NCBI GenBank assembly: GCA_035419245.1
Contig: DAOLSP010000006.1
Location: 66,758-130,757, forward strand
Origin: a bacterium
GTDB lineage: Bacteria > Zhuqueibacterota > Zhuqueibacteria > Residuimicrobiales > Residuimicrobiaceae
DNA length: 64,000 nt
Direction: 5' to 3'
Every line of letters begins with the position of its first letter. The stretch's first letter is position 1. Positions 5,622 to 33,545 of this stretch are shown piece by piece. A program made the position numbers and the translations under genes. The notes beneath the pieces are model-generated. The model was not told the origin of the DNA, made no database searches, and worked only from the letters and a program-made list of their open reading frames with translations.

Positions 5622-5889
5622 GAAGCGAAGTGTCCTTTTCTGGTGGATGGAAGATCCCCATTGATCGGCTAAATATACGCCCGTCCGTGGAGAAAAGCAA
5701 GAATTCTTCACGAAGAGTGCAGCAACACCCATGGTGGAACGGTGTGGTAATTGCTTGTGATTAAGCCGCAGATTTAGTATATTTTTTTTATTTTATGGTT
5801 TACCAAGCATACGCAGGCACGGCCGGGAGGTTTCATCCGCCGGGCCTTTTGTTGCAGCGTATCCAACCAAAAGCAGGGAATGGTTCCGC

Positions 5890-15697: not shown

Positions 15698-15722
15698 AAG
15701 CGATTCTTTTCAAGAATCGTTT
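15698..15722 (+). terminator. Hairpin followed by a T-rich tract downstream of the LysE gene
   Basis: aaGCGATTCTTttcAAGAATCGttt: 8-11 bp stem with a 3-nt loop, then tttgacaccTTTGTTTG. Confidence 0.5.
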
Positions 15723-15749
15723 GACACCTTTGTTTGCAAAGCGTATATT
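15721..15749 (+). promoter_or_regulatory. Sigma70-like promoter for the C1 peptidase gene
   Basis: TTGACA (15721-15726), 17-nt spacer, TATATT (15744-15749). About 60 nt upstream of an AGGAGG RBS and the ATG at 15814. Confidence 0.6.
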
Positions 15750-15813
15750 GAGAGAGAGGTCCTGCTCCCATTCCGCGCGGTGGTTCAGATTTGCTCTGAA
15801 AGGAGGCCTATTC

Positions 15814-17068: not shown

Positions 17069-18898
17069 ATGCGTATTCGAGCAATTGTTACCATTATGGC
17101 CCTTGTGTTGATGACCTCCTGGGCCTTCTCCCAGGAGTACTCCGCCAGAGAATCCTTCGATTATCCCATCGGCGCCTCCATCGATACCCTCATGGGCGCA
17201 GCAGCCAACGGCTTTCAGGGCGGGTGGTACAAGATCGTCGCTGCGGCCCCCAATGCGGCCGTCGCTTCCGATGCCGGCCTGCCCTATGACGACCTTAACT
17301 ACAACGTCCCCCACGCCGGCAATCACCTCGAAAGTGTGCCGTTGGCTACCGCCACCGAGCAGCGCTGGGGCCGGCACCTCGATAAAACCTGGCCCTGCGT
17401 CGCCGGCAACGTCTACTGGATCAGTATTATAATGGATGTCAAGAACGCCACCGACAACGCCACCTGGGTCGGCGTCAAGTACTACGACGGCGATACCGGC
17501 GAACTCGGCATGTTCGGCAAAGGGCACGGCATGGACAAATACTCCGTAGGCAGCGGCTGGCATGGCAGCGCCGGCCCTGAAGTATCCAATGTCTCCTGGG
17601 ATGCCGGCCCGGTCTGGCTGGTTGGCAAGACCGTAATGAAGGGCGTTGGCAACCCTGCCTACGACACCACCTACATGTGGATCAATCCCGATCCGACCGC
17701 GGGCGAGCCCAGCACGACAACCGCTGATGCCGTGGCCAATACCAGCATGGAAAACGGTTTCAATACAGTCCGCATCGAATTCGGCGGCACCGTCGGTGAC
17801 GGGCTCCAGGTCAGTTTCGACGAACTGCGCATGGGTACCTCCTTCGCCGCAGTCTCCTCCGACATCTACCTGGCCCGCGAATCCTTCGAGTACCCCGTCG
17901 GCACCTCCATTGATGCCGGAATGGGCACTGCGGGCAATGGCTGGCAGGATGCCTGGTATACCATAGTTGCTGCCCAGGCTGGCGCCGCGATCACTTCCGA
18001 TACCGGCCTGCCCTATGACGATCTCAACTACAGCATCGCCAATGTCGGCAATCACCTCGAAAGCGTGCCGTTAGCAACCGCCACCGAGCAGCGCTGGGGC
18101 CGTCGCCTCGATAAAACCTGGCCTTGCGTCGCCGGTCAGAACTACTGGATCAGCTTTATCATGGATGTCAAGAACGCTTCCGACAACGCGACCTGGCTTG
18201 GCATCAAATATTATGATGGCGATACCGGCGAGCTGGGGATGTTCGGCAAAGGCCACGGCATGGACAAATACACCGTGGGCAGCGGATGGCATGGCAGCGC
18301 CGGCCCCGAAGTCTCCAACGTCTCCTGGGATGCCGGCCCGGTATGGATCGTCGGCAAAACAGTCATGAAGGGCGTCGGCAACGCCGATTATGACACCACC
18401 TACATGTGGATCAACCCGGATCCGGCAGGTGGACAGCCCGCCGTAGCGGCCGCGGACGCCGTTGCCAACACCAGCATGGAGAACGGCTTCAACACGGTCC
18501 GCATCGAATTCGGCGGCACGGTGGGTGACGGCCTCCAAGCCAGTTTTGATGAGCTGCGGATGGGCACCACATGGGGCGACATCTCCACGCCACTGCTCGC
18601 CACTGCAGTGGAGTCCCACCCGGTCGCCTCGCCGGAATCGTTCAGCCTTTCCCAGAACTATCCGAACCCCTTCAATCCGAGCACCACGATCAATTATACG
18701 CTCCGGACCACCGGCAAGGTGCGTCTCGCCGTCTATGATATGACCGGGCGCGAGGTGGCGGTTCTCGTGGATCAGGTCCAGAATGCCGGCGAGCACATCG
18801 CCCGCTTCACCCCGAAGGACCTGCCCAGCGGCATCTATGTCTATCAACTCAGGACTGCTGATCAGCTCCTCAGCAACAAGATGGTCCTGATCAAGTAA
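17069..18898 (+). CDS. T9SS cargo protein: signal peptide, two tandem ~243-aa repeats of an unrecognised domain, type-A C-terminal sorting domain
   Basis: AAGGAG RBS before ATG 17069. Signal peptide MRIRAIVTIMALVLMTSWAFSQ. Repeat 1 (ARESFDYPIGAS…) and repeat 2 (ARESFEYPVGTS…) are ~85% identical. C-terminus LSQNYPNPFNPSTTINYTL…GIYVYQL…KMVLIK matches the Por_Secre_tail pattern. Confidence 0.85.
   Translation: MRIRAIVTIMALVLMTSWAFSQEYSARESFDYPIGASIDTLMGAAANGFQGGWYKIVAAAPNAAVASDAGLPYDDLNYNVPHAGNHLESVPLATATEQRWGRHLDKTWPCVAGNVYWISIIMDVKNATDNATWVGVKYYDGDTGELGMFGKGHGMDKYSVGSGWHGSAGPEVSNVSWDAGPVWLVGKTVMKGVGNPAYDTTYMWINPDPTAGEPSTTTADAVANTSMENGFNTVRIEFGGTVGDGLQVSFDELRMGTSFAAVSSDIYLARESFEYPVGTSIDAGMGTAGNGWQDAWYTIVAAQAGAAITSDTGLPYDDLNYSIANVGNHLESVPLATATEQRWGRRLDKTWPCVAGQNYWISFIMDVKNASDNATWLGIKYYDGDTGELGMFGKGHGMDKYTVGSGWHGSAGPEVSNVSWDAGPVWIVGKTVMKGVGNADYDTTYMWINPDPAGGQPAVAAADAVANTSMENGFNTVRIEFGGTVGDGLQASFDELRMGTTWGDISTPLLATAVESHPVASPESFSLSQNYPNPFNPSTTINYTLRTTGKVRLAVYDMTGREVAVLVDQVQNAGEHIARFTPKDLPSGIYVYQLRTADQLLSNKMVLIK
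17144..18602 (+). repeat. Tandem direct repeat, 2 x ~729 bp, within the CDS
   Basis: Period 729 nt (second copy begins ~17873), ~88% nucleotide identity. Mirrored by duplicated spurious ORFs on the minus strand (17051..18055 and 18071..18913). Confidence 0.85.
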
Positions 18899-19010: not shown

Positions 19011-21005
19011 TCACTTTTCCGCCGGGAGGTTCTTTGCCGTTTTCACTCGCGCAAGCAGCACCCGGGCAGGCTGATAGCCCGGGAAGCGCCGAAGGGTGCG
19101 CTCGAGCAGGCTGACGGCGAGTTCCGCTTTTCCTGTGGCAAAATAGGCCAGGGCAAGCATATAGGCCGTATCGGGTGCTGTGGCCGGGTCCTCCGGAAAG
19201 CGCCCCAGGGATTCGTAGTAGCGGATGGCTTCTGTGAGACGGCGCTGCTTGAGGCAAATGTCACCGAGAACCCGTGTTGCCACCCGGGTGGGCTCCACCT
19301 GCAGTGAAGCCAGCAGCAGGGTCTCCGCCTTGACAAAATCCTGATCATCGTAGTGAATTTTTGCTAGATGGAGATAGGCCATGACCTGGTGCGGCAGCTG
19401 ATTGATAATGGTTTCGTATTCTTTCGCTGCGCGTCCGCGCTCGCCCCGCCGCAGATAATAGGCCGCGGCGCGCTCATGCACGGTGACCCAGCCGAACTGG
19501 TTGCGGACGGCTTGATCCGCGAGCGCGCGTAGGGTATCGCTGGCCGGGACGGCTGGAATGGGCAGCGCCCGGGTTTGAAAAGGCCAGCGGGTGGTAAGGA
19601 GAGCAATCTTGCGCTCGGCCATATAGTCATCCACCGGAGTCAAGGGCCGGTTCTGCCAGAGCAGGCTCTCCGCCGCTGCGCCACCATGCTCCCAGGCCGC
19701 CGCCGGCACCGGCAAACCCCGCTGCTGCAAGATGCGGGCATACTCCGCGGCCATCAGAAACTGTCCTCGAGCGGTGGGATGAAGATGTTCGCTGATGAGA
19801 TTAAGGCCGATGAGGGAGTCCGGCGAAGCTGCCTTGAAGCAGAGTTCGATATCCGCGACCTGGCAACCCTCCCGGTGCGCCATCGAGCGGATCAGATCGT
19901 TGAACCGGCTGTCGGTGCGGAAGCGCAGCGCATCAAGATCCCTCGCCCGCTGGTATTCGTGCAAGGCCTGTTCCTTGTGGCCGAGGGCATCGCAGCACTG
20001 CGCCAGGCGATAATGGACCTCGGCATAGCTGGAATCTAGCTGCATCGCCTCCTGAAAAGGGACCCGCGCGGAATCCGCCTGACCGCGAGCCTGCAGATCC
20101 CGCCCGATCTGGAAGAGCTGCTGAAATCGCCTGATGACAGCCGGATCCAGGCCCGCGGCATGCAGCGAAACAAAAGGTACCTGCTGGCGCAGGTTGGAGG
20201 CCTGGGTCGAAAACAGCAGCGGGATGTGATGCTGCCGGCAAAGATCCGCTAGCGCCAGCATGTTCTTTTGAAAAATCTCAAAGGCCTGGTTGTAAAGCCG
20301 GCTTCCCTGTGGTACTGTGCGCCCGCCCGCGACCTGTTCCATCAGCGTCGTGCGCCCGACCGATTCCTCATCCTGGGTCCCGAAAAGGCCGAGCACCTTG
20401 AGGAGCCCCTCCCGGACGAGTTGGAAGGTGCGCATGTGGACCAGTCGGAGATAGAGGAGATTGAGGGTGCGGGAGGTTGTCAGGCGTGCGTTCGAGGCGA
20501 CTCCAAGCGCCCCATAGAATTCATTGTGGCCGTCGTAGACGATCACAAGGTCGGGCTGGTACCGGAAGAGCTCCCGGCCAATATCGAGCACCGTGTAGCT
20601 GTTAGTCGCCGTCATGCCGAGATTGATGACCTCGACCGGCTGGCCGGGACAAAGCGCTTTCAGACGCTCGCGGAGAAAGGAAGCAAAGGCCCCGTTGTAC
20701 CAGTAGGGGTAGCCGACGGTGGTCGATCCACCCAGGCAGAAAATCCGGAAGGTTCCAGCCGGCTTGTCCGCACCTAGGTACTCCGGCGATGGATCCGGAG
20801 TGAAACGGGTGCTGTTGCCGAAATAACGGTTCTTGCAGGCGGGATTGAGGGTGTACCAAGTACGGCCCTGAAAACGCTCCTGCGAAAAAAGGGCGAGATC
20901 GGGGCCAAAATCAATCCAGCGTAATAAAAGCTCGAACAAGCCGAGAAGCAGTAGGGGTAGCAGCACGGCAAGCAGGGTGAAGAGACACCTTCGCCGGGGA
21001 TTCAT
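19011..21005 (-). CDS. Membrane-anchored SGNH/GDSL-like hydrolase domain protein with C-terminal TPR repeats
   Basis: N-terminal anchor MNPRRRCLFTLLAVLLPLLLLGLF. SGNH-like blocks (FCLGGSTTVGY, VIVYDGHNEF, SEHLHPT). Multiple TPR-like helical repeats in the last ~250 aa. The longest ORF starts with TTG at 21101; internal ATGs at 21053 and 21005. 21005 was chosen because it places the signal anchor at the N-terminus. Confidence 0.65.
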   Translation of the reverse strand: MNPRRRCLFTLLAVLLPLLLLGLFELLLRWIDFGPDLALFSQERFQGRTWYTLNPACKNRYFGNSTRFTPDPSPEYLGADKPAGTFRIFCLGGSTTVGYPYWYNGAFASFLRERLKALCPGQPVEVINLGMTATNSYTVLDIGRELFRYQPDLVIVYDGHNEFYGALGVASNARLTTSRTLNLLYLRLVHMRTFQLVREGLLKVLGLFGTQDEESVGRTTLMEQVAGGRTVPQGSRLYNQAFEIFQKNMLALADLCRQHHIPLLFSTQASNLRQQVPFVSLHAAGLDPAVIRRFQQLFQIGRDLQARGQADSARVPFQEAMQLDSSYAEVHYRLAQCCDALGHKEQALHEYQRARDLDALRFRTDSRFNDLIRSMAHREGCQVADIELCFKAASPDSLIGLNLISEHLHPTARGQFLMAAEYARILQQRGLPVPAAAWEHGGAAAESLLWQNRPLTPVDDYMAERKIALLTTRWPFQTRALPIPAVPASDTLRALADQAVRNQFGWVTVHERAAAYYLRRGERGRAAKEYETIINQLPHQVMAYLHLAKIHYDDQDFVKAETLLLASLQVEPTRVATRVLGDICLKQRRLTEAIRYYESLGRFPEDPATAPDTAYMLALAYFATGKAELAVSLLERTLRRFPGYQPARVLLARVKTAKNLPAEK

Positions 21006-21143
21006 GGCCTGGAGCACAACATCACGATCTTGCTTTTTCACATCTCTCTCCATTGTCGGAAGCAGAGCAAACGGGATGGGAGAATATATAGCAATAAACA
21101 ATCCGATTCAATTCCTATTTATCATTTCCTGGAGGTACAGAAG

Positions 21144-24100
21144 ATGAACCAGACGAAAAACCTGCTGGGATGGGTCCTCTTGCTTTCGCTCATTCTGGCG
21201 GGTGCGCTCCTCGCGGGAACGACCGGCAAGATCGCCGGGACTATCACCGAAAAGTCGACGGGGGAAGCCCTGCCCGGGGCCAACATCCTCGTCACCGGCT
21301 CTCGCCTGGGTGCAGTGACCGATCTTAGCGGTCGCTACACCATTCTCGAGGTTCCGCCCGGGACCTATTCGCTCCAGGTCACCTTTCTTGGCCATCAGAA
21401 GACCATCGTCAATGATGTCCGCGTTTACATCGACCAGACCGCGCGCGTCGATGTCGCCATGATCCAGGAAGCGATCGAGATCGGAGATGTGGTGGTGGTC
21501 GCTGAACGGCCGCTGATAAAGCCCGATGTGGCCACCAGTGTGGTCGCCGTCTCCGGCACCGAGCTCAAAAGCCTGCCGGTAGCCAATGTGACCGACGTCA
21601 TGGGGATGCAGGCAGGCATTGACGGTACCAACATTCGCGGCGTCGGTCTCGATGAAGCCCTCTTCATGGTCGACGGCGTCACCATGCGCGATCCGCGCAA
21701 CAACCAGGCCCTCACCAAGGTGGCGCTAAGCACTGTACGCGAGATCTCGGTTGAGCGCGGCGGTTTCAATGCCGAATACGGCCAGGTTCAGTCCGGCATC
21801 GTCAACGTGGTCACCAACGAGGGCAAGGCCAGAGGCTACTCGGGCAGCTTCAATCTTCGTCTGACTCCGCCGGCACGCAAGTATTTCCACGGCTCGGACA
21901 TGCCCGATGTCAACTCACCCCAATCCTACTGGCTGCGCCCTTTCTATGATGACGCGGTCTGCTGGACTGGGACCACCAGCGGCGCCTGGGACACCTACAC
22001 CCAATCCAAATATCTTGAATTTGAGGGCTGGAATGCTGTTTCGCAGCAGCTCTGCACCGACAACAACCCGAACAATGATCTCTCACCGCTGGCTGCCCGG
22101 CGGGTTTTCGAATACTATACCCGCAAGCGGCAGATCAACGATCAGCCCGACTATGAAATCGATGGCGGCTTTGGCGGACCGGTGCCAATTGTCTCCAAGA
22201 TGCTGGGCAACCTGCGTTTCTTCGCCTCCTACCGCGGACAAAAGAGCCTCTTGCTGTGGCCGAGCGCGCGGCCGGATTACAAGGATTACGACGCCCGCAT
22301 CGTCGTCAATTCAGACGTCAGTGAGTCCATGAGGCTGCGCATTTCGGGCTTATCCGGAAACATCGCGACCATGGCCGGCAACCGCGCTTCCGAATCCACC
22401 TACAAGCAATGGCCCTACGAACTGGCCGGCACCACGCTCGGGACCGGGGGCTATGCCCTTTTCAACATGTTCAGCGACTGGACCTACGGCCTCGCAAACC
22501 GCAAACACAATGCCCTTTCCGCCAAACTGACCCACATGCTCAGCAAATCGACCTATTATGAGATTTCGGCGGAATATTTCAACCGTAAATACGACACCCA
22601 CTCGCCGGAGATGCGCGATACCTCCAAAACCACTGAAATCATCCCCGGCTATTTCGCCACCTCCACGCCTTATGGGGTTTTCTACGGCATCGACGGCATC
22701 GTTAGCGGCATCAATGAAGGCAACCAGAACGCCCTTGCCCGCGACAAGTCGAACGTCAGCAGCACTACGCTCAAGGCGGATTTGACCAGCCAGGTCAACT
22801 TCAACAACCTCGTCAAGTCGGGGGTCGAGTTTGTTTACAACGACCTGAACCTCGATTACGGCTACATCCGCATGCAAAGCGGCGGGCTGCAATATGACAA
22901 TCGGACCCAGATGCGCGATTTCCCGGTCCGGGCTGCCATGTATTTACAGGATAAACTCGAGACCAAGGGATTCATCCTCAACGTGGGCCTGCGCCTCGAT
23001 TATAGCAATTCGCGCACCGACTGGTGGGCCCTTGACCCATTCAATCCCCTGTTCTACTCCTACAAGTATACAGAGACCGCCGATTTGGCCAAGACCAAGG
23101 CGAAGGGGCAATGGCAGCTCTCTCCACGCCTCGGCATCTCCCACCCCATCACCGACCGGTCCAAGCTCTACTTCAACTATGGCCATTTCAAACAGATGCC
23201 GACCTATGAATCCCAGTACCGCTTTGACCGCTCCTCTGACAATACGCTGGTCCGTTTCGGCGATCCCAATCTGACCCTGGCCAAAACCATCGCCTATGAA
23301 CTGGGCTACGATCACGATCTCTTCAATGGCCAGCTTCTCCTCCAACTGGCCGCTTTTTACCGGGACATCAGCGACCAGCAGAATACCACCTCCTACCGCC
23401 CGGCCTATGGCACAGCCTACACGGTGACCACCAGCACCGCTTATTCCGACATCCGAGGCTTCGAGCTCACCCTGCGCAAATCGGCCGGACGCTGGTTCTA
23501 CGGCTTTTTAAATTATACCTATCAAGCCACCTCGAATGGCGCCTTCGGCGAGAATTATGTCTTCGAGGATCCCAAGTCGCAGCAAGATTACGATGAGAAC
23601 ACGGTGAATATCTATCAGACCCGCTCGGTGCCCTCTCCCTTCGCCCGGGCCAACCTGACCTTCTCCACGCCGCGACAGTTCGGCCGCCCAAGACTCTTCA
23701 ACCACGCGGTCCTGGGTGATCTGATCGCCAATATTCTGCTGCGTTGGAATCAGGGCGGCTGGACAACCTACAATCCCAATAACGCCGGCACCACCAGTTT
23801 CAACAACAACACCAATAACAAGATCCAGAACAACATTCAGTATCTCGACTACTTCGATGCCACCCTGCGTTTAAGCAAGTCCATCCAGATCCGCAAGGTC
23901 AATCTGCAGGTTTTCGCTGACATCAACAACCTCTTCAACACCCGTCGTCTCAATAACACCGGTGATCTGAACTATCGTAAATCCCTGCATCTGCCCCGGA
24001 GCGATGCCTACAACAATATCCCAGGCGACGATAAATTTGGCGATTACCGCAAGCCCGGCGTCGCCTGGCAGCCTATGGAGAATGGCGTGGACTTTAACTC

Positions 24101-24338
24101 CATCCCCTCCTCCAACCGTGCCTGGTATTACGACAAATCCACGAACGCTTACTGGTATTATACCGACAACGTTACGGTCCTGGAGGTTAAGGACCGCTGG
24201 GCCAAGGTCGATAAGGCCAAGGTCGATAAGGCCATCAAGGACAGGGCGTATATCGATATGCCCAATCCCTCCACTTACTGGTTCCTCAATCCGCGGACGG
24301 TCACCTTTGGGGTTCGTCTCGCCTTCGATATCGATTGA
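21144..24338 (+). CDS. TonB-dependent receptor-like outer-membrane protein with N-terminal CarboxypepD_reg-like domain
   Basis: GGAGG RBS 8 nt before ATG. Signal peptide. Cna-B/carboxypeptidase-regulatory-like beta-sandwich (GKIAGTITEKSTGEALPGANILV…). Plug-like region, then ~800 aa of alternating beta-barrel sequence. The C-terminus ends …VRLAFDID, which is not the canonical terminal aromatic. Confidence 0.7.
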   Translation: MNQTKNLLGWVLLLSLILAGALLAGTTGKIAGTITEKSTGEALPGANILVTGSRLGAVTDLSGRYTILEVPPGTYSLQVTFLGHQKTIVNDVRVYIDQTARVDVAMIQEAIEIGDVVVVAERPLIKPDVATSVVAVSGTELKSLPVANVTDVMGMQAGIDGTNIRGVGLDEALFMVDGVTMRDPRNNQALTKVALSTVREISVERGGFNAEYGQVQSGIVNVVTNEGKARGYSGSFNLRLTPPARKYFHGSDMPDVNSPQSYWLRPFYDDAVCWTGTTSGAWDTYTQSKYLEFEGWNAVSQQLCTDNNPNNDLSPLAARRVFEYYTRKRQINDQPDYEIDGGFGGPVPIVSKMLGNLRFFASYRGQKSLLLWPSARPDYKDYDARIVVNSDVSESMRLRISGLSGNIATMAGNRASESTYKQWPYELAGTTLGTGGYALFNMFSDWTYGLANRKHNALSAKLTHMLSKSTYYEISAEYFNRKYDTHSPEMRDTSKTTEIIPGYFATSTPYGVFYGIDGIVSGINEGNQNALARDKSNVSSTTLKADLTSQVNFNNLVKSGVEFVYNDLNLDYGYIRMQSGGLQYDNRTQMRDFPVRAAMYLQDKLETKGFILNVGLRLDYSNSRTDWWALDPFNPLFYSYKYTETADLAKTKAKGQWQLSPRLGISHPITDRSKLYFNYGHFKQMPTYESQYRFDRSSDNTLVRFGDPNLTLAKTIAYELGYDHDLFNGQLLLQLAAFYRDISDQQNTTSYRPAYGTAYTVTTSTAYSDIRGFELTLRKSAGRWFYGFLNYTYQATSNGAFGENYVFEDPKSQQDYDENTVNIYQTRSVPSPFARANLTFSTPRQFGRPRLFNHAVLGDLIANILLRWNQGGWTTYNPNNAGTTSFNNNTNNKIQNNIQYLDYFDATLRLSKSIQIRKVNLQVFADINNLFNTRRLNNTGDLNYRKSLHLPRSDAYNNIPGDDKFGDYRKPGVAWQPMENGVDFNSIPSSNRAWYYDKSTNAYWYYTDNVTVLEVKDRWAKVDKAKVDKAIKDRAYIDMPNPSTYWFLNPRTVTFGVRLAFDID

Positions 24339-24373
24339 TGGCCAGCCACCAACCTAACGAATGGGAATGCACG

Positions 24374-26647
24374 ATGAATAAAAAGAAAATGAGACGCTTG
24401 CCCCTGCTGCTGGCCATTAGTACCCTGTTAGGGGCCGGCAGTATCGATCGTACAACGGCCCAGGACCTCCGGTGGATCCGAGTCGGCCAGCTGCAATGCT
24501 TTTTCATGGATTTCGGAAACGAGTGCGAACTTTATCCTTTCACGACGACCAATTTTCTCGCCTGGCCCGCCCAGTATGGAGATAACCAGTATGCCACCCG
24601 CGCGAAAGCGGTCTGGATAGGGGCGAGCGATTTTTATGACCCCGTCGAGAAAAAGACCAAATCGGTCAAGGTGATCGGCTCCGGACCGCGTTATGACGCG
24701 GACAACCAGGCGGCGATGATTTTTTCGACCAGCATCAAGCTGATCGGCCGCGAACAACCCCCGAAAGTCATCGTCGACAACCAGAACGGCTCTTCCAATA
24801 CCCTTTATGATGCCCTGGACGAAATCGACCCCAACCTCCCCAGCGACCGGATGGTGGTCATCCGTTATAACACCTCCATGGGGGTGTCGGTCATCAAAAA
24901 AGTTCTCGGCTTTGTCCAGCAAAACCATGACACCTATTTCATCCACGACTACGTTTTCAAGAATACCGGCATTTATAATACCAAGGGTGAAATCAACGCC
25001 CAGACGCTCAAGAACTTTTGGGTCTATTTCAGCTACCGATATGCGATGAATGGGGTCTGCTCGAATGGTTACAGTTCGGCATGGGGCGATTTCGGAATGG
25101 AATGGGGCTCCAGCACGGTAGCCCACGACTTCGGACCCCCCTACCGCTCCCGCCCGGACAGCCTCCGCGGTTTTTATGCCTTCTACAGCCCGCTGAAGGG
25201 AAGTTATGGCACCCGCAACGCCGTGACCAGTCTCGGCTATGACTACGACTGGGGCTGCCCGAAGCAGACCGGCGGCGGACTCAACCTCGACGGTCTCCTC
25301 GGTGCCGCCAAATTTGCTGGCTGCGTAACCCTGCTCGCTTCCAAGGGATCCGGCGCCCTGTTCAACATCGACGACTACAATCAACCTGCGACCGTGAACT
25401 ATTTCAATGCCGACGGTTCAACAACAACCAACCCGCAAAGCCAGTATGACGAAACCGCAATGAAGCTGCGCTGGGCGGAGATGACCGAAGGCCACCTGCA
25501 AAAGTCGCTATGGGAGGCCGTCGGTGATGGACGCTACTACGCCGACTGGCTGAACACGGATCCCCTGCATCCCTCCGGCGGCATGTATGGCCAGGGCTTC
25601 GGCCCCTATACCCTGGCCCCCGGCGACAGCATCCGCATCGTCTTCGCCGAAGGCGTCAATGGTCTGGCTTGGGAAAAATGCCGCGAGGTGGGGGCCAACT
25701 GGTATCAGTACTTCGCCGGGACCGGGGCACCGACCCTCATCAAGCCGGATGGCAACACTACGACCAACGTCTCGGAATACCAGAAGGCCTGGGTCTTTTC
25801 GGGTGTCGATTCCATTCTACAGACGTATAAGAACGCCCGCGCCAATTTCCGCTCCGGCTACAAAATCCCCCAGCCCCCGCCGGCGCCGGCCTCCTTCACC
25901 GTCGCCTCCGGTGGCGATGCCATCAGCCTGACCTGGGCCGACAACGCCGACAAGACCCCCCACTTCAACGGCTATGTGATCTACCGCTCTGAGGGGCTGG
26001 TCAAGGACTACCGCGCGGTCTATGAAAAGATCTTTGAATGCGATGCCGCCCATGTGACCCACAGCTTTGACGACACCTCCGCAACCCGCGGCTTCAATTA
26101 TTACTACTTTATTCAATCCAAGGATGACGGGACGCAGAACGACGTCAAACCGGGCGTGCCGCTTTACAGCAGCATGTTCCTGACGATGACCTCGGTTTCT
26201 GCCAATCTGCTCCGCCCATCAGGCGATCTCCTCGCCGAGGTGCGCGTTGTCCCCAATCCCTACGATATCCGCTCCCGCAAATGGCAATTCGGCGAGGTCG
26301 GGCCTTATGATCGGATCATGTTTTATGGGATCCCACCCAAATGCAAGCTCAAAATCTTCAGCGACGACGGCACCCTGATCTGGGAAACCGTGCACAACAA
26401 TGGCTCCGGGGATGAGCCGTGGGACTCCAAGACCTCCTCTAACCAGATCGTCGTCAGCGGCATCTACATCCTCTATGTCGAGGTGACTGAGGATACCTAT
26501 GCAACCGACGACCGCATTGCGCGCTACGACATCACGGACGAGAATCTCAAGACGATCTATAAACAGGGTGAAGTGCTCTATCACAAAGGCGACAAAATCT
26601 TCAGCGCCGGACAGTCGACATTCCGCAAATTCGTAATTATTCGATAA
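24374..26647 (+). CDS. Secreted protein with Fn3 domain and a CTD-like C-terminal region
   Basis: Signal peptide MNKKKMRRLPLLLAISTLLGAG. Fn3-like segment (PPPAPASFTVASGGDAISLTWAD…YVIYRSEG…). C-terminal VVPNPYD…KLKIFSDDGTLIWE…WDSKT…GIYILYVEV… resembles T9SS/gliding CTD type B but carries ~50 extra residues ending …FVIIR. Lies 36 nt after the receptor gene. Confidence 0.7.
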   Translation: MNKKKMRRLPLLLAISTLLGAGSIDRTTAQDLRWIRVGQLQCFFMDFGNECELYPFTTTNFLAWPAQYGDNQYATRAKAVWIGASDFYDPVEKKTKSVKVIGSGPRYDADNQAAMIFSTSIKLIGREQPPKVIVDNQNGSSNTLYDALDEIDPNLPSDRMVVIRYNTSMGVSVIKKVLGFVQQNHDTYFIHDYVFKNTGIYNTKGEINAQTLKNFWVYFSYRYAMNGVCSNGYSSAWGDFGMEWGSSTVAHDFGPPYRSRPDSLRGFYAFYSPLKGSYGTRNAVTSLGYDYDWGCPKQTGGGLNLDGLLGAAKFAGCVTLLASKGSGALFNIDDYNQPATVNYFNADGSTTTNPQSQYDETAMKLRWAEMTEGHLQKSLWEAVGDGRYYADWLNTDPLHPSGGMYGQGFGPYTLAPGDSIRIVFAEGVNGLAWEKCREVGANWYQYFAGTGAPTLIKPDGNTTTNVSEYQKAWVFSGVDSILQTYKNARANFRSGYKIPQPPPAPASFTVASGGDAISLTWADNADKTPHFNGYVIYRSEGLVKDYRAVYEKIFECDAAHVTHSFDDTSATRGFNYYYFIQSKDDGTQNDVKPGVPLYSSMFLTMTSVSANLLRPSGDLLAEVRVVPNPYDIRSRKWQFGEVGPYDRIMFYGIPPKCKLKIFSDDGTLIWETVHNNGSGDEPWDSKTSSNQIVVSGIYILYVEVTEDTYATDDRIARYDITDENLKTIYKQGEVLYHKGDKIFSAGQSTFRKFVIIR

Positions 26648-26660
26648 CGGGAGCAGATCG

Positions 26661-27725
26661 ATGAAAAAAATAACCGCAATTCGCCTTTTCGGAAGTATCC
26701 TGGTCCTGCTCGCCTCGGTCGGTGGAAATGCCCAGGATAACCAGAAACTGGCGCAGACCAGTTTCAAATTCCTGAGTGTCGTCTCTGACGCCCAGGGCGC
26801 CGCCATGGCCGGCGCAATGACCAGCCTGCCGTTGGGCTCCAGCGCCCTCTTTTTCAATCCGGCAGGGATGGCGAATATGGAAAGGCGCGCCGACCTATCG
26901 CTCAGCAATAACGAGTGGATCGCTGATATCCGGCACTATACGGTGGGCCTGGCACTCAATCCGGCCAATGGCAAATACGGCGTGGTCGGACTGAGTCTGC
27001 AGTATGCCGATTTTGGGAGCTTCATTGGCACAGTGGTCAGCAAGGATCCTGCCAACCTCAAAGGCTACGAAGAGACCGGCCTTTTCGATCTCAATGCCTA
27101 TGCCGTGGGTCTCGGCTACGCCAGGGCGCTTACCGACCGCTTCAGCGTCGGTGGGCAAATCCGTATGGCCCATCAGGATCTCGGAGAGAGCCGGATTCCC
27201 AACGAATCCAAACACATCCCGATCTATGATGATTCGAATCACGCCATCATCGGCTATGAGGACTCGACGGCTACAGGCACCAACCGCCTCACGCCCCTGG
27301 TCTTCGACTTTGGCACCCAGTTCAAGACCGGCGTTAAGAGCCTCGTCTTCGGCATGTCGGTGCGTAACTTCTCCAAGGAAATTCAATATGTCTATGAGCA
27401 GTTCCAGCTGCCCCTGGTTTTCACCCTCGGGATCTCGATGAATCTGATGGATCTTTTTCATGAGGTCCCGTATAACCAGTCCCTGGTGATGAGCATCGAT
27501 GCAAGCCATTACCGGGACCATCCCGAGCAGCTCAAGGTCGGATTGGATTACCGGATCATGAACATGATCGCCCTGCGCGGCGGCTATGTCACCGCCAGCG
27601 ATGAGAACAGTGGCTTTTCGTTCGGACTCGGCGTCTATAAATCAGGCTTCGCCTTTGATTACGCCTATACCCCCTACGGGGTCTTCGATAACGTCCAGCG
27701 CATGACCGCCCGGATCTCACTGTAA
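26661..27725 (+). CDS. FadL-superfamily outer-membrane beta-barrel (PorV/PorQ/PorP-like)
   Basis: Signal peptide. N-terminal hatch-like motif …SDAQGAAMAGAMTSLPLGSSALFFNPAGMAN, matching the GxGxA…DDA…NPA pattern shared by FadL/PorV-type 14-strand barrels. 354 aa. Lies 14 nt downstream of a CTD-bearing gene. Confidence 0.65.
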   Translation: MKKITAIRLFGSILVLLASVGGNAQDNQKLAQTSFKFLSVVSDAQGAAMAGAMTSLPLGSSALFFNPAGMANMERRADLSLSNNEWIADIRHYTVGLALNPANGKYGVVGLSLQYADFGSFIGTVVSKDPANLKGYEETGLFDLNAYAVGLGYARALTDRFSVGGQIRMAHQDLGESRIPNESKHIPIYDDSNHAIIGYEDSTATGTNRLTPLVFDFGTQFKTGVKSLVFGMSVRNFSKEIQYVYEQFQLPLVFTLGISMNLMDLFHEVPYNQSLVMSIDASHYRDHPEQLKVGLDYRIMNMIALRGGYVTASDENSGFSFGLGVYKSGFAFDYAYTPYGVFDNVQRMTARISL

Positions 27726-27745
27726 TCAAGGCCAAGGAGAATACC

Positions 27746-29002
27746 ATGATGAAACCTTGCTGTATCTTAACCCTCGTCACGCTCCTGCTGGCGGCTGCCG
27801 GACTTTTGCTGACCGGTTGCGAATTTGATGTCGCCGAGCCCAAGTGGGAGGAGCCCGCGCCTGCTACCGCCGCCGTCTCGATTTCATCGATCGATCCGGC
27901 AGCCGCGGTTGCGGGCGTGAATTATATCACCATTCATGGCGCTAATTTCACCGGCGCGATTGATACCCTGATCGTCAAGAGCTCGGACAAGGATACCAGT
28001 TACCGCTATCTCTATAATGGCATCTACTTCGATGATGTCAAGGCGGATGTTGTCGAGTTCTCCGACACCGTCATTAAGGTGCGCCGACCCAAACTGGCCA
28101 ACGAGGCCTGTCAGGTCAAGGTGGTCTCCAATAAGGCGATGGCCACGGCCAAATATGCCCAGCCTTACAGGATCGACGCGGTCGTCGGCCGCTATGGCCT
28201 GTTCAACGAGGATCTGCCGCTGGCAGTGGTTGTCGTGGATGCCCGCGAGAATCTCTATGTAGTTGAGACCAACACCCGTTATATCCAAAAAATCACCCCT
28301 AGCGGCGACAAGACCAACATCGCCTCCGCCCTGCGCGTCCCCTACGACGCCAGCATCGGAGGGGACGGCAATCTCTATCTGGCCGGAAACAACAGGGCCA
28401 TCGACCGGGTTGACCTCTCCACTGGAACCATCGCTCGCTGGGTGAACCTCCCATCGGGAAAAGTGGTGAAATTCCTTGATTTCAGCGAAACCGGATACTG
28501 CTTTGCCGGCGGAACCCGTACCGATCTGGTCGTCATTCCCGGGGATCTGTCAACCACCGCGGTCTCAGCCGGTTTTTACGCCACGCAGGAGATCCTCGCC
28601 ATCCGCTGCTATAACGGCGCCGTATACGTCGCTGCCCGGGCCACAGCAGCCGATCCGGTCAAGATCTACCGGCATGCCATTGGCGACAAGGGCAGCGTCG
28701 GCGCCCAAGAGCTGGTCCTCGATCTCTCCAAAACCAGCATGTTCGCCGGCCGAAGCCTCAAGGCCATCAGTTTCGCCTCGGATGGTACCATGATAATCGC
28801 AACCGATGCAGCCGATCCCCTGCTCAGCTATACTCCCGCCACCGGCCAGATGGATTATTATTACAAGGGAATCCTCAATCCATATTGCAAGCACTTTTCC
28901 TGGGGCAGTAAGACTTATCTCTATATGATCTGCGGCGATGACACCGCCGGCGAAGAGTGGACGGTCTATCGCGTCGACATGGGGACGACAGCGGGCAACT
29001 GA
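27746..29002 (+). CDS. Lipoprotein with IPT/TIG-like domain and beta-propeller-like C-terminal region
   Basis: Lipobox LLTGC. Ig-like segment (SISSIDPAAAVAGVNYITIHGANFTG). Repetitive beta-rich C-terminal part (NLYVVE / NLYLAG repeats). Confidence 0.65.
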   Translation: MMKPCCILTLVTLLLAAAGLLLTGCEFDVAEPKWEEPAPATAAVSISSIDPAAAVAGVNYITIHGANFTGAIDTLIVKSSDKDTSYRYLYNGIYFDDVKADVVEFSDTVIKVRRPKLANEACQVKVVSNKAMATAKYAQPYRIDAVVGRYGLFNEDLPLAVVVVDARENLYVVETNTRYIQKITPSGDKTNIASALRVPYDASIGGDGNLYLAGNNRAIDRVDLSTGTIARWVNLPSGKVVKFLDFSETGYCFAGGTRTDLVVIPGDLSTTAVSAGFYATQEILAIRCYNGAVYVAARATAADPVKIYRHAIGDKGSVGAQELVLDLSKTSMFAGRSLKAISFASDGTMIIATDAADPLLSYTPATGQMDYYYKGILNPYCKHFSWGSKTYLYMICGDDTAGEEWTVYRVDMGTTAGN

Positions 29003-29085
29003 CCCCCGTCACCATCCAGCCCAGGGCCTGTGGCGTCTGCAACAGGCCCTATTATTAATTGCACGGTCAACCCCAGGGAGTCTCC

Positions 29086-31017
29086 ATGCGTCTTACCATG
29101 TCAAGCCTGCTTTGTTTCCTCGGCCTCGCGGGATCCACGCTGCTTCCGGCGCAAACGGCCGAGAACTGTTTTCTCGTGGATTTCGCCCCCAGGACGGCGT
29201 GGATCCCACCCTCTCAGGCGGCGGCTAAACCGCCCGCCAATCCGGACGTGATCGTGACCATCAGCACCATGGATACGCTTGGCAAGGTTTCCCCGTACAT
29301 CTTTGGCAATGCCCTGGCGGCCTGGGTAGGCAATGACGTGATGAACAAGGTGCTTATCGGCCATATCCAGGAGCTCTCCCCCACCCTCATCCGCTATCCC
29401 GGCGGCAGCTGGGGCGATATCTTTTTTTGGAATGGCGATCCAGGCGACCTGCCTGCCACCATCCCCGACGGCGCCAACAATGGCGCAGCGATCCCCCTCT
29501 CCCCTCAGTTCGGTGCGAACAGCTGGACCACGACTCTGGATAACTATTATTCCATGCGCGATCAGGTCAACGCAACCCAGGGATTGATCACCGTCAACTA
29601 TGGCTATGCCCGCTACGGCCTTGGTGATAAACCGGTGGAGCGCGCCGCCCATCTGGCTGCCGACTGGGTCCGCCATGATGAAGGTCGCACCAAATTCTGG
29701 GAGATCGGTAATGAGAACGCCGGGCCGTGGGAAGCCGGCTGGCAGATTGATACCACCCGCAACCGGGACGGCCAACCCAAAATCATCACCGGCGAGATCT
29801 ATGGACGCCACTTTAGAATTTTCGCTGATTCCATGCGGGCCGCGGCGGCCGAAATGGATGAAACCATTTACATCGGCGGTCAGATCCTCCACTATGACGG
29901 CACGACCAGCTGGAATGTCGCGGACCGAACCTGGAATGAAGGGTTTTTCCGGGAAGTCGGTGGGAGTGCGGATTTTTATGTGATGCACAATTATTTCGGC
30001 AGCACCGGGGTCAGCAAGGCCAGGAGCCAGATCGATCTGGCGCGCAGCGAGATCAACAAAAACATAACCTTCATCCGCCAGGATATCGCCCGGAAACAGG
30101 CCTTCAGCAGACCGGTCGCCCTGACGGAGTGGAATATGGTCGATCATCCCCAGGCCGTGACCTCCATCGCGAACGGCATGCAGGCCGTCGTGCTCAGCTG
30201 CGAGATGATCCAGAACCAGTTCGGCCTGTCGGCCCGCTGGCTGCTGGTTCATTGGGAATCCGGCGGGATGTTCTACAAGGGCGCCAACCCGGCCATTCCA
30301 GCCTGGAGCCCGCGTCCCGACTTTTACTATCTCTACTACCTGCAGCGTTTCACCGGCAACCACAGCATCAAATCAGCTGTGGCCGGCAGCAGCGATGTGC
30401 TCTCGTACGCCACTACCTTCGCCTCCGGCGAGCTGGGCGTGGTGACCGTCAACAAGGGCGCCACCGAACAGATCATCCAGCTCTCGCCGCAAGATTTCTC
30501 CCCAGGCGGCCAATACTACCTCTACTCGCTCGTCGGAGAGACCAGCGAGCAATGGGCGCAAAAGGTCGTGGTGAACGACGCCGGCCCATCGGGAGCAGCC
30601 TGGGGACCGGTTGAGGGGCTGGAAAAGATACTCGCCCGGGCTTACGACACCAACGGCGGGATCCGCTACACCTCACCGCCGTTGTCGGTGCAGTATGTGC
30701 TCATTAGCCGCGCCGTGAACCGCGTCGAATCCGCACCCCCCCTAACGCCGGACCATTTCGAACTCGGCCCCAATTATCCGAATCCCTTCAACGCCCGGAC
30801 CATGATCTCTTATCGTCTACCCCATGAGATAGAGGTGAGGCTGCGGATCCTGGACCTGAGCGGGCGAGAGGTCGCTCAATTGCTCGCTGGCACCCGGCAG
30901 CAAGCTGGTGTGTACCGCATCGCGTTTGATGCCAGCTGTCTCAGCAGCGGCCTCTATCTCTGTAGACTGGAGGCAGGCCCCCTCGCTGCAACCCGGAAAA
31001 TGCTCCTGATCAAGTGA
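29086..31017 (+). CDS. T9SS-secreted clan GH-A glycoside hydrolase (GH51/GH39-like, possible alpha-L-arabinofuranosidase) with type-A CTD
   Basis: AGGGAG RBS. Signal peptide. RYPGGSWGDIFFWNGD N-terminal block. Acid/base WEIGNENAGPWE and nucleophile LTEWNM motifs of clan GH-A. C-terminal LGPNYPNPFNARTMISY…GLYLCRL…KMLLIK CTD. Confidence 0.8.
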   Translation: MRLTMSSLLCFLGLAGSTLLPAQTAENCFLVDFAPRTAWIPPSQAAAKPPANPDVIVTISTMDTLGKVSPYIFGNALAAWVGNDVMNKVLIGHIQELSPTLIRYPGGSWGDIFFWNGDPGDLPATIPDGANNGAAIPLSPQFGANSWTTTLDNYYSMRDQVNATQGLITVNYGYARYGLGDKPVERAAHLAADWVRHDEGRTKFWEIGNENAGPWEAGWQIDTTRNRDGQPKIITGEIYGRHFRIFADSMRAAAAEMDETIYIGGQILHYDGTTSWNVADRTWNEGFFREVGGSADFYVMHNYFGSTGVSKARSQIDLARSEINKNITFIRQDIARKQAFSRPVALTEWNMVDHPQAVTSIANGMQAVVLSCEMIQNQFGLSARWLLVHWESGGMFYKGANPAIPAWSPRPDFYYLYYLQRFTGNHSIKSAVAGSSDVLSYATTFASGELGVVTVNKGATEQIIQLSPQDFSPGGQYYLYSLVGETSEQWAQKVVVNDAGPSGAAWGPVEGLEKILARAYDTNGGIRYTSPPLSVQYVLISRAVNRVESAPPLTPDHFELGPNYPNPFNARTMISYRLPHEIEVRLRILDLSGREVAQLLAGTRQQAGVYRIAFDASCLSSGLYLCRLEAGPLAATRKMLLIK

Positions 31018-31026: not shown

Positions 31027-33462
31027 CTATTCGCTGATGATCTGCAGCACCGCCTCCTGCAAGCCTTCCGAACGGGCGGTTAAAACGATCACGCCCGGCT
31101 CGTCGCGCGTCTGGATCACGCACAGGCATTTACCGTTGAACGCCATGCGATGGTCCGCCTTGAAGGGCTCCATGCTGGTCTGGAGGCCGTTATCGACACC
31201 GGCGATCACAGCCGGCCCCTGCAGGGAAAACTGCACCAGGTTGTCCGCCCGCGGCGCCAGGACCCCGGCGCTATCCACGACCTCGACCGTCACGAACGAA
31301 AGATCACGGCCGTCCGCCTTGATGCGATCGCGGTCGGCGGTCAGGACTATTTTTGCCGGAGCCCCGGCAGTCTGCATACGCTGCTCGAGCACTGCGCTGC
31401 CCTCCTTATAGGCCACCGCCTTGAGAAAGCCTGGTTCGAAGGGCACCCGCCAGACCAGCTGGAAGGTATCGCGGGTCTTCTCCTTTTTGCCCAGGGAACG
31501 ACCGTTGAGGAACAGCTCCACCGCACCCTGGTTGGTGTAGGCCCAAACATCGATCACCTGGCCGGATTGCCAGTTCCAATGCGGGAAGAGATGCAGCATA
31601 GGCCGGCTGGTCCATTCGGCCTGATAAAAATAGTAGCCATCCTTGGGGAAACCGGCCAGATCGATCAGGCCGAAGTAGGAGCTGCGCGCCGGCCAGGGAT
31701 AGGGCGTCGGCTCGCCGAGATAATCGAAACCGGTCCAGATAAACATGCCGGAGACATAGGGATACTCGCGCACGATCCGCCAGTTATCAGCATGGGTGGC
31801 CCCCCAGGGGACGCGGCAGTTGTCGTAAGCCGAGCAGGTGAGATCGGGATTCATCGGCCCCCGTTTGTTCCAGGCAATCGGCCAGATCCGCACGGAATCG
31901 GAGGGCATGTCATACGCGCCACGGGTGGCGATGGCGGAGTTGGTTTCGCTGGCGACTAGTTTCAGTCCCGGATAATCCTGGGGGAAGGTTCGCAGATCTT
32001 GCTCGTGATAGTTGCGGCCGACGACATCCAGAGCGCCCGAGCGGATGATGCGATTCTGCGGCGAGGGGTCGTTGCAGGCCGAGGTGATCGGTCGGGTAGG
32101 ATCGAGATCGCGGACGATTGCAGCCAGCTCTTTGGCCATCTCGATGCCGCTGTCATCCCACTGTTCGGGAATCTCGTTGCCTATGCTCCAGAGCACCACG
32201 CAAGGATGGTTGCGGTCACGCCGTATCAGATCCTCGAGATCACGGCGGTGCCATGCATCCCAATCGAGGTGATAATCGTAGGGATTCTTGGGCAGCTTCC
32301 ACATATCGTAGGCCTCGTCCATAACCAGTAAGCCCATGCGGTCGCAAAGGTCGAGCAATTCCGGCGCCGGTGGATTGTGGGAGGTACGGATGGCATTGCA
32401 GCCCATCGCCTTGAGCAGCTCGAGCTGACGCTCGAGGGCGCGCTCGTTGATCGCCGCCCCGAGGCAGCCGAGATCGTGATGGTTGCAGACCCCCAGCAGC
32501 TTCATCGCCACCCCGTTGAGGGCGAAGCCTTTCTCCAGGTCGAAAGCGATGGTGCGGATGCCAAAGGGGGTCTCGTACCGGTCCTCCTCCCGGTTTTCAG
32601 CCAGCACCCGGGTCACCGCACGATAGAGCACCGGCTTTTCGACCGACCACAAGGCCGGCTGCGTCACGGTGACGTTCCCTGATATTGGTTCAACGGCTCC
32701 CGGGGGCACACTTATCGCATTGCGCAGAGCAGCCACCCGGCGGCCAGCGGGATCGAAAACCTCGGTCATGACCGTCACCTGCTGCGAAGTCTCGCGGTCA
32801 TTGCGAACCCGGATCTGCAGGGAAATCACCGCCTGCTGCGCCGAGACTTCCGGCGTAGTGATGCAGGTGCCCCAGTGATCAACATAGACCCGGCCGGTGA
32901 GGGTCAGCCAGACATTGCGGTAGATCCCCGAGCCGGAATACCAGCGCGAATTGGGCTGCTTCGAGTTGTCGACACGCACCGCGAGGACATTCGCGGCACC
33001 ACCGAATTTCAGCCACGGTGTGAGTTCATACCGGAAGGAACTGTACCCGTAGGGCCGCTTGCCAAGGTAATGGCCGTTAATCCATACCTCACTGTTGCGG
33101 TACACGCCGTCGAAATCAATGAAAGCGCTACGGCCCATGTCCGCCTGCAGCAGCGTGAAGGTTTTGCGGTACCATCCGATGCCGCCGGGCAGGGCGCCGC
33201 CGTCGGTCGTAGCGGGGTTATCCTTGCTGAACGCCCCCTCGATGCTCCAGTCGTGGGGCAGGTTCAGGGTTCGCCAGTCACTGTCGGCGAAACCGGGTTC
33301 CTGGGCGCCAGGGAGATCCCCCAGCTTGAACTTCCAGTCTCGGGTGAAGCGCTCGATCCTCCGCGGGGACGGTCCAGGGGCGGAACACTGCATGCAGATC
33401 GTCGCCAAGGCCATAAGGGAAACCGCCATCCTAAGGGCCACCAGACTCTGATTACAGGTCAT
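31027..33462 (-). CDS. GH2 beta-galactosidase-like glycoside hydrolase, secreted
   Basis: GH2 sugar-binding, Ig-like and TIM-barrel order (NLPHDWSIEG…, WSIGNE acid). ~800 aa. Hydrophobic N-terminus. Start ambiguous: GTG at 33468, ATG at 33462 (chosen, GGAG upstream) or ATG at 33429. Confidence 0.8.
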   Translation of the reverse strand: MTCNQSLVALRMAVSLMALATICMQCSAPGPSPRRIERFTRDWKFKLGDLPGAQEPGFADSDWRTLNLPHDWSIEGAFSKDNPATTDGGALPGGIGWYRKTFTLLQADMGRSAFIDFDGVYRNSEVWINGHYLGKRPYGYSSFRYELTPWLKFGGAANVLAVRVDNSKQPNSRWYSGSGIYRNVWLTLTGRVYVDHWGTCITTPEVSAQQAVISLQIRVRNDRETSQQVTVMTEVFDPAGRRVAALRNAISVPPGAVEPISGNVTVTQPALWSVEKPVLYRAVTRVLAENREEDRYETPFGIRTIAFDLEKGFALNGVAMKLLGVCNHHDLGCLGAAINERALERQLELLKAMGCNAIRTSHNPPAPELLDLCDRMGLLVMDEAYDMWKLPKNPYDYHLDWDAWHRRDLEDLIRRDRNHPCVVLWSIGNEIPEQWDDSGIEMAKELAAIVRDLDPTRPITSACNDPSPQNRIIRSGALDVVGRNYHEQDLRTFPQDYPGLKLVASETNSAIATRGAYDMPSDSVRIWPIAWNKRGPMNPDLTCSAYDNCRVPWGATHADNWRIVREYPYVSGMFIWTGFDYLGEPTPYPWPARSSYFGLIDLAGFPKDGYYFYQAEWTSRPMLHLFPHWNWQSGQVIDVWAYTNQGAVELFLNGRSLGKKEKTRDTFQLVWRVPFEPGFLKAVAYKEGSAVLEQRMQTAGAPAKIVLTADRDRIKADGRDLSFVTVEVVDSAGVLAPRADNLVQFSLQGPAVIAGVDNGLQTSMEPFKADHRMAFNGKCLCVIQTRDEPGVIVLTARSEGLQEAVLQIISE

Positions 33463-33545
33463 AGACACTCCTGATAAAATTAAAATACCTTGAAGGACGA
33501 GTGTCCAGCAGCCACGCCCTCCCTTCCCGCGTGGCTGCGCTCTTC

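Follow-up and report, generated by a model that had tools for sequence, protein, structure and literature searches.

A tandem concanavalin A-like domain protein with a type IX secretion sorting signal, a candidate surface glycan-binding protein in a Zhuqueibacterota genome

The window analysed here is a stretch of 64,000 nucleotides (positions 66,758 to 130,757 of contig DAOLSP010000006.1, assembly GCA_035419245.1) from a bacterium of the Residuimicrobiaceae (Zhuqueibacterota). It carries a gene, called the lectin gene below for the fold of its repeated domain, that a preliminary description made from the letters alone had presented as a type IX secretion system (T9SS) cargo built from two recent copies of an unrecognised domain of ~243 residues. 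The gene and its parts were located as follows.

17069..18898, plus strand: whole gene, 609 residues, with signal peptide, two lectin-like domains, linker and T9SS sorting domain (from the open reading frame and its translation)
17069..17131, plus strand: predicted Sec signal peptide MRIRAIVTIMALVLMTSWAFS, residues 1-21 (read by inspection)
17132..17860, plus strand: domain copy N, residues 22-264, a concanavalin A-like beta-sandwich and candidate glycan-binding module (AlphaFold2 and Foldseek)
17267..17626, plus strand: segment of copy N with a gene-conversion signature, counterpart 17996-18355 in copy C, synonymous divergence (dS) between the copies 0.51
17861..18589, plus strand: domain copy C, residues 265-507, abutting copy N with no linker and 79.4% identical to it
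18659..18886, plus strand: type-A T9SS C-terminal sorting domain, residues 531-606 (PF18962, TIGR04183)

The gene is a single open reading frame on the plus strand, with start ATG 17069 and stop TAA 18898, and an AGGAG Shine-Dalgarno sequence lies 8-9 nucleotides 5' of the ATG. Three orthologs (P0001-P0003) also begin with MRIRA at the same start, and a longer, GTG-initiated frame from 16967 was rejected because the close orthologs all begin there. By inspection, the signal peptide comprises MRIR, a hydrophobic stretch and the residues AFS ahead of a putative cleavage point before QE; this N-terminal pattern recurs in ~60 homologs, and the peptide holds no lipobox cysteine of the kind that anchors SusE/F-type lipoproteins. 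A short Pro/Ser-rich linker leads from copy C to the sorting domain, which scored 34.1 bits against PF18962 (cut-off 27, E = 3.3e-8) and 41.7 bits against TIGR04183 (cut-off 23, E = 8.4e-11). With the sorting domain above both cut-offs and the repeat exact, the description of the product as a T9SS cargo made of two ~243-residue copies was borne out, and by sequence criteria it is a bona fide type-A cargo. Among cargos of that type it is set apart by an uncatalogued passenger domain and an uncultured host lineage. Other traces of the system within the window were a PorV/PorQ-family gene and two further proteins with sorting domains.

The two copies form a direct repeat with a period of exactly 729 nucleotides (243 residues) and no insertions or deletions, as found by a direct-repeat search and offset counting; Tandem Repeats Finder reported no repeat because its maximum period of 500 is shorter than 729. 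BLASTP aligned copy N to copy C with 193/241 identities and no gaps (E = 4e-146). Over the whole unit the copies were identical at 193/243 residues (79.4%) and 581/729 nucleotides (79.7%), so that the earlier figures of ~85% and ~88% were too high; in the core alone (residues 46-235) identity was 87% for protein and 84% for nucleotides. The motifs said to be conserved (PYDDLNY, GNHLESVPLATATEQRWGR, WPCVAG, KYYDGDTGELGMFGKGHGMDKY and WINPDP) were all present in both copies. The single cysteine of WPCVAG is likewise in both, but as a conserved feature it is lineage-specific: of 91 family copies, 71 have N or D in that column and 7 have C. Between the copies the proportion of synonymous differences was 0.49, dS ~0.80 and the nonsynonymous divergence (dN) 0.127, and with dN/dS at 0.16 both copies are under purifying selection. 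Among the 59 positions at which 80% or more of the family copies agree, they differ at three, each time conservatively (F28W, L163I and V241I).

These values do not describe a young duplication. In a tree of 91 domain copies, copy N of the window grouped with the N copies of P0001-P0003 and copy C with their C copies, and the same N with N and C with C grouping held across the window and the loci L002, L003 and L004. In nucleotides, copy N is 89% identical to its N counterpart in L002, 84% to that in L003 and 80% to that in L004, and it is 80% identical to copy C of its own gene. The duplication is therefore older than the split of at least four sampled genomes, and with dS at ~0.8 the proposal of a recent event was not sustained. 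We conclude that the tandem duplication is old, maintained by selection and apparently homogenised in patches, and that the moderately high identity of the copies reflects purifying selection (dN/dS 0.16) and, probably, patchy gene conversion rather than youth. Divergence is uneven along the unit: in the flanks (the first 135 and last 234 nucleotides) dS between the copies was 1.17 and 1.25, near saturation, whereas in the middle segment, 17267-17626, it was lower (0.51) than the orthologous dS to L002 (0.61-0.64). In L002 the homogenised part is instead the 3' third of the unit (dS 0.41). Quartet site patterns against L002 supported orthology at 61 sites, concerted change at 16 and the third pattern at 2, with the concerted sites clustered at 17317-17404, 17484-17581 and 17731-17739. 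Together these patterns are suggestive of patchy gene conversion upon an old duplication.

A mis-assembled tandem, or a very recent and unstable duplication, was also considered as the source of the two-copy structure. Mis-assembly of tandem repeats can happen, a one-copy relative, P0022, hardly differs from the two-copy P0005, and the contig that encodes P0004 stops just past the second copy. An artefact is nevertheless very unlikely, and we give this explanation almost no weight, because the copies differ at 148/729 sites, their longest identical run is 26 nucleotides, and the same two-copy gene occurs in independent assemblies (L002, L003, L004 and the P0004 contig); the dS of 0.8 between the copies and the grouping of N with N and C with C across four independent assemblies point the same way. 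The P0022 and P0005 pair points to copy-number polymorphism or to collapsed metagenome assemblies. Proneness to assembly collapse, raised in the preliminary description, is no issue at 80% identity, but it may concern relatives whose tandem copies are 96-99% identical; those listed were L007, L008, L015, L018, L020, L023, L030 and L032.

No model of Pfam-A or NCBIfam matched the repeat in the window protein, nor did any Pfam model in 33 family members (E <= 0.1), and sequence searches of the PDB, whether by a single copy or by a profile of 33 sequences, returned noise and the sorting domain only. A match to DUF7901 in one member (P0014, 28.9 bits) was rejected as a family assignment, as it is the sum of two sub-threshold stretches of which neither is individually significant; none of the other members scanned (33 + 10 + 8) showed it. 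To place the fold, we modelled copy N with AlphaFold2 from a 33-sequence alignment, which gave an all-beta structure of ~15 strands (mean pLDDT 92.4, pTM 0.91). Foldseek returned 182 PDB matches at E <= 1e-3, and the best 50 of the 182 were almost all concanavalin A-like lectin/glucanase jelly rolls. Among the matches listed were calreticulin globular domains (E = 1.3e-6, TM score 0.56), legume lectins, ERGIC-53, the lectin domain of trypanosomal and Akkermansia sialidases, clostridial neurotoxin Hc-N, a beta-1,3-glucanase of the glycoside hydrolase family 16 (GH16) type (7eo3, rank 5), an alginate lyase of polysaccharide lyase family 7 (PL7) and a PL28 ulvan lyase, all with probability 1.0, E of 1e-6 to 1e-4, TM scores of 0.4-0.56 and identities of 6-12%.

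By the fold of its model, and by fold only, the domain is a member of the concanavalin A-like lectin/glucanase superfamily. It has the two-sheet jelly roll of that superfamily and differs from its members in sequence, at 6-12% identity and with no sequence match to a family of the clan in Pfam or the PDB; its own signature motifs are ESFxY close to the N-terminus, GKGxG, MWxxPDP and, at the C-terminal end, FDExR. The GH16 catalytic motif E-x-D-x(x)-E was not found in either copy by a regular-expression search. The view that the repeat is unrecognised and belongs to no known family was thus correct for its sequence, where Pfam, NCBIfam and the PDB were negative, but not for its fold, which is a standard one. 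A structural comparison had been put forward as a way of finding out whether the repeat matches a well-characterised domain, and this it does in part, at the level of fold and to no characterised family.

The family was surveyed in two ways. A word-indexed search of 5.8 billion proteins identified the domain in 62, each of them also bearing a T9SS sorting domain; about half had one copy (~365 residues) and half two (~600-610 residues). A phmmer search of 1.84 billion representatives gave 130 clusters at E <= 1e-3, with a single-sequence query that may miss more distant relatives. At 50% identity the family makes up ~130 clusters, which are spread over Bacteroidota, Ignavibacteriota, KSB1 and Marinimicrobia, and the closest relatives of the source lineage are labelled KSB1, Bacteroidota or simply 'bacterium'. 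When copies were counted with a family hidden Markov model over all collected proteins, 107 proteins had one copy, 43 had two, 2 had three, 2 had five and 1 had six. The proposed comparison of one- and two-copy orthologs was made, and both versions coexist among relatives.

Nucleotide identity between tandem copies varied widely, from 99.2% in L008, 98.6% in L007, 97.8% in L015, 97.6% in L018, 96.4% in L023 and 96.2% in L020 to 85.7% in L017 and ~80% in L005, L028 and the window. Tandem modules were 77-99% identical within genomes and the protein identity between lineages was 35-60%, and the two-copy genes are positional orthologs that adjoin the same regulator or receptor cassette. Since the copies are alike within lineages while the lineages have diverged at orthologous positions, the pattern appears better explained by an ancestral two-copy gene whose copies still evolve in concert, or by repeated collapse and re-duplication, than by a multitude of separate recent duplications. 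Other lineages hold stable heterotypic pairs whose copies are 30-46% identical.

The genes around the lectin gene were annotated as follows.

15721-16686, plus strand: papain-family (C1) cysteine peptidase, immediately upstream of the lectin gene
19011..21101, minus strand: GDSL/SGNH hydrolase with TPR repeats, the divergent neighbour, kept in 12 loci (Pfam, neighbour clustering)
21030..24338, plus strand: TonB-dependent receptor with a CarboxypepD_reg N-terminal domain (Pfam)
24374..26647, plus strand: conserved 757-residue protein, here U770, with no Pfam match (AlphaFold2 pLDDT 85)
26661..27725, plus strand: PorV/PorQ-family outer-membrane protein (NF033709, 171.5 bits, cut-off 90)
27746..29002, plus strand: putative TIG-domain lipoprotein (Pfam TIG; N-terminus LLLTGC)
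29059..31017, plus strand: second T9SS cargo of the locus, 652 residues, recognised by its C-terminal sorting domain only
31027..33468, minus strand: GH2 beta-galactosidase (Pfam; PDB 4ypj, E = 1e-226)
33546..36392, minus strand: GH31 alpha-xylosidase with a PA14 insert (full-length match to BoGH31A, 5jou, E = 3.4e-298; also CjXyl31A, 2xvg)

To see which of these genes travel with the domain, we clustered by blastp the open reading frames of 30 loci that carry it. A TonB-dependent receptor of ~1060-1100 residues with CarboxypepD_reg and Plug domains was present in 16/30 loci, including three Bacteroidota loci in which it pairs with SusD. An unannotated protein of ~760 residues of the U770 type followed the receptor immediately in 13 loci, the divergent GDSL and TPR protein was found in 12, GH13 amylases in 10, and a ~340-residue member of the PorV/PorQ family in 8. 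A hybrid two-component sensor-regulator of ~1400 residues, of the type associated with polysaccharide utilisation loci (PULs) and composed of Reg_prop, Y_Y_Y, HisKA, HATPase, receiver and AraC domains, also occurred in 8 loci, and relatives' loci carry GH3 together with a hybrid two-component regulator.

In KSB1, Ignavibacteriota and Marinimicrobia the lectin gene adjoins the hybrid regulator and the TonB-receptor cassette; it lies directly 3' of the regulator in L032 and L033 and beside it on the opposite strand in L030. A reverse search from four U770 homologs in other genomes recovered the four-gene cassette each time, with a two-copy lectin gene nearby in three of the four loci. In three Bacteroidota loci, one from the cultured Portibacter marinus 10MBP4-2-1 (L026, with six copies) and two from metagenome-assembled genomes (L028 and L029), a protein with 4-6 copies of the domain is encoded directly after SusC/SusD and before sulfatases. 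That position is classically occupied by the SusE/F-type surface glycan-binding proteins (SGBPs).

The cassette itself (receptor, U770, PorV/PorQ barrel and TIG lipoprotein; 21030-29002, plus strand) recurs in L030-L033, from KSB1, Marinimicrobia and Ignavibacteriota, and the KSB1 locus L031 has two cassettes in tandem. It resembles an uptake module that has a T9SS-type component and no SusD, and neither the domain nor the cassette was described in the literature that we searched on T9SS-linked PUL-like loci in Ignavibacteria and KSB1. The window receptor resembles SusC at its N-terminus only (TIGR04056, 68.7 bits against a cut-off of 368). More than 500 homologs of U770, 50-90% identical to it, are without a Pfam domain and all carry the label hypothetical. 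Its all-beta model consists of an N-terminal supersandwich, an FN3 domain and a C-terminal sandwich; Foldseek gave it weak matches only, to the beta-supersandwich N-domain of GH94/GH116-type enzymes and to FN3, with a faint match of the C-terminal sandwich to the tail of PorZ. We considered and rejected U770 as a SusD analogue, given an all-beta model without the helical fold of SusD, and as a PorZ homologue, since it has no propellers and the NCBIfam PorZ model covers only its C-terminal 85 residues (20.7 bits against a cut-off of 260). The PorV/PorQ-family gene sits inside a cluster of the carbohydrate-utilisation type and not with T9SS core genes, and its product may serve specifically to shuttle or anchor the T9SS cargos of the locus.

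The second cargo, at 29059-31017, has an N-terminal portion of ~570 residues without a Pfam match and with faint GH51-like matches in the PDB (E ~0.1); it is a candidate for the endo-glycanase otherwise lacking in the locus, and it is kept at the same position in L030 and L032. The GH2 enzyme and the GH31 enzyme with its PA14 insert form a xyloglucan-type pair in a lineage outside Bacteroides. The C1 peptidase gene is syntenic in the closest relatives, L001/L002, and lies near the lectin gene in L023, and the GDSL/SGNH hydrolase, fused to ~350 residues of TPR repeats, could be an esterase or an assembly factor.

Two known systems offer the closest comparisons. Like the SGBP-B proteins of the SusE/F type, the lectin protein is encoded beside an outer-membrane glycan importer, is built of tandem, internally duplicated beta-sandwich modules of a previously unassigned family, and is predicted to perform the polysaccharide docking at the surface presumed for those proteins. 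It differs in its predicted anchoring by a T9SS C-terminal domain instead of a lipoprotein signal, in its module, a 243-residue concanavalin A-like jelly roll, and in its importer, which is not a true SusC and has no SusD. With the xyloglucan utilisation locus (XyGUL) of B. ovatus, the window locus shares a BoGH31A-like alpha-xylosidase with PA14 and a GH2 beta-galactosidase clustered with an outer-membrane TonB-dependent importer, and its relatives share the GH3 enzyme and the hybrid two-component regulator. Unlike that locus, it has neither SusD nor a GH5 or GH9 endo-xyloglucanase, its importer is paired with U770, the PorV-like barrel and the TIG lipoprotein, and its surface proteins are predicted T9SS cargos. 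The nearest precedent for the modules is the laminarin SGBP of Christiangramia forsetii (Cf-SGBP), in whose PUL a previously unassigned, internally duplicated beta-sandwich module is present as four CBMxx repeats that are 47-84% similar (10.1101/2023.09.07.556657). No PDB chain matched the lectin domain in sequence, and its best 50 Foldseek matches were proteins of other kinds with TM scores of at most 0.56, in a copy of the PDB that may lack the CBMxx structure.

Our preferred interpretation, which we hold with a probability of about 0.58, is that the protein has no catalytic role and serves a PUL-like locus as a bivalent glycan binder, anchored on the cell surface through the T9SS. A binding module is favoured because of the contexts in which the domain occurs, its multiplicity and its pattern of conservation. 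It is fused to GH31, CBM35, RicinB and a sorting domain in P0098, to two CBM9 domains (with two copies of the domain, Flg_new_2 and a sorting domain) in P0090, to CBM35 and RicinB in P0109 and to a sulfatase in P0159, and arrays of 2-6 copies are typical of avidity-driven binding modules. Over 132 distant copies only E7, F9, Y11, W32, R81, W96, D230 and E231 were near-invariant, and these residues sit in the first strand (ESFxY) and the last (FDExR). In jelly-roll carbohydrate-binding modules and LamG-type modules these two strands make up the structural core, which often binds Ca2+. The loop residues K116, E124, K130, Y137, W143, H144 and E216 are conserved in the subfamily of the window and variable between subfamilies, and in this they appear to behave as specificity determinants would, unlike catalytic residues.

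Several observations weigh against this interpretation. The concanavalin A-like fold is common to many endo-glycanases and lyases, with GH16, PL7 and PL28 among the Foldseek matches, 243 residues is large for a carbohydrate-binding module, and no recognised endo-xyloglucanase was found in the locus. The same observations could be read as those of a catalytic domain that represents a new family of glycoside hydrolases or polysaccharide lyases with this fold, in which case the protein would be a tandem enzyme and perhaps the surface endo-xyloglucanase of a locus that has exo-acting GH31 and GH2 enzymes and no recognised endo-glucanase; its size is typical of GH16 or GH12, and the polar residues R81, K116, E124, K130, D187 and E216 are strongly conserved in the close subfamily. 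We consider this unlikely. There is no ExDxxE motif, the polar loop residues are not kept in distant members (K116 becomes S, M or G, and E216 becomes K or H), and the near-universal acidic residues are confined to the two strands of the usual jelly-roll core; moreover, binding modules typically occur as the domain does, in arrays of 2-6 near-identical copies and after catalytic modules such as GH31 or sulfatase, and the T9SS protein at 29059-31017 is an alternative candidate for the endo-enzyme.

It is also conceivable, and in our judgement distinctly improbable, that the protein does bind a polysaccharide but as a surface adhesin or matrix protein, holding the cell's own or a foreign exopolysaccharide for attachment or aggregation and not feeding the TonB-dependent receptor. 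Adhesins are numerous among T9SS cargos, the tandem repeats of surface adhesins commonly evolve in concert, and distant members of the family consist of the domain and a PEP-CTERM anchor only. The PEP-CTERM sorting signal is associated with exopolysaccharide-producing bacteria. Against an adhesin stand the tight synteny across phyla with the TonB-receptor cassette, the hybrid regulator and glycosidases, the SusE/F position of the gene in Bacteroidota PULs, and the fusions to glycoside hydrolases and sulfatases. For the surface glycan-binding protein that we prefer, the analogy to PULs is indirect because SusD and an adjacent hybrid two-component regulator are both missing from the window and its receptor falls below the SusC cut-off, and the likely ligand has to be read from neighbouring genes, which vary among relatives (GH13 enzymes or sulfatases).

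Xyloglucan is the leading ligand candidate in the window because of the pair of alpha-xylosidase and beta-galactosidase in the locus. In the xyloglucan utilisation locus of B. ovatus such enzymes make up the set that removes side chains. An alpha-glucan was considered as the local ligand on account of a GH13 and CBM48 gene at 9334-11394 and was rejected, as unrelated genes intervene and the GH31 enzyme within the cluster is an alpha-xylosidase and not an alpha-glucosidase. Since relatives adjoin GH13 enzymes or sulfatases, specificity probably differs between subfamilies.

On this basis a working mechanism can be outlined. The signal peptide would direct export of the lectin protein by Sec, after which the T9SS, judging from family membership, would recognise the type-A C-terminal domain, move the protein over the outer membrane and fix it on the cell surface, with its two concanavalin A-like modules displayed in tandem. 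Fold, fusions, multiplicity and synteny suggest that the two modules may bind one polysaccharide avidly, in this locus probably xyloglucan or a plant glucan akin to it, and from synteny the bound glycan would be held near the TonB-receptor cassette and handed to surface or periplasmic glycosidases and to the receptor. Gene conversion or unequal exchange would repeatedly homogenise the two copies while purifying selection maintains both. A bolder version, which we offer as speculation with little expectation that it will hold in full, is that the tandem lectin captures glycans for a distinct uptake machine, coupled to the T9SS and consisting of receptor, U770, PorV/PorQ-like barrel and TIG lipoprotein, in KSB1, Ignavibacteriota and Marinimicrobia, the SusD-less phyla of the Fibrobacterota-Chlorobiota-Bacteroidota group. 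Binders and enzymes delivered by the T9SS would be held at this importer and would replace SusD and SusE/F in function, and gene conversion would keep the modules matched because selection acts on bivalent binding of one repeating glycan.

If binding is confirmed, the domain would found a new family of carbohydrate-binding modules or lectins. It is a candidate new binding family, but the kind of system is already known, and its existence is not surprising in principle. The family marks PUL-like loci in largely uncultured, SusD-less phyla, where current annotation reads only 'T9SS sorting domain protein' or 'hypothetical protein', and the lectin gene gives an entry to a widespread cassette of receptor, 757-residue protein, PorV-like protein and TIG protein. 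The apparent concerted evolution of its tandem modules, which differ by about 60% between lineages, bears on assembly quality and on the evolution of multivalent binders.

Two minor observations concern the wider setting. An Ignavibacteriae metagenome-assembled genome encodes, at 126-10844 on the plus strand of L021, a 3572-residue protein with one copy of the domain (residues 2628-2865) among other internally repeated segments. Within the window, a T9SS cargo of 1024 residues with FG-GAP repeats is encoded at 48125-51199 on the minus strand, an indication that the genome may use the T9SS broadly.

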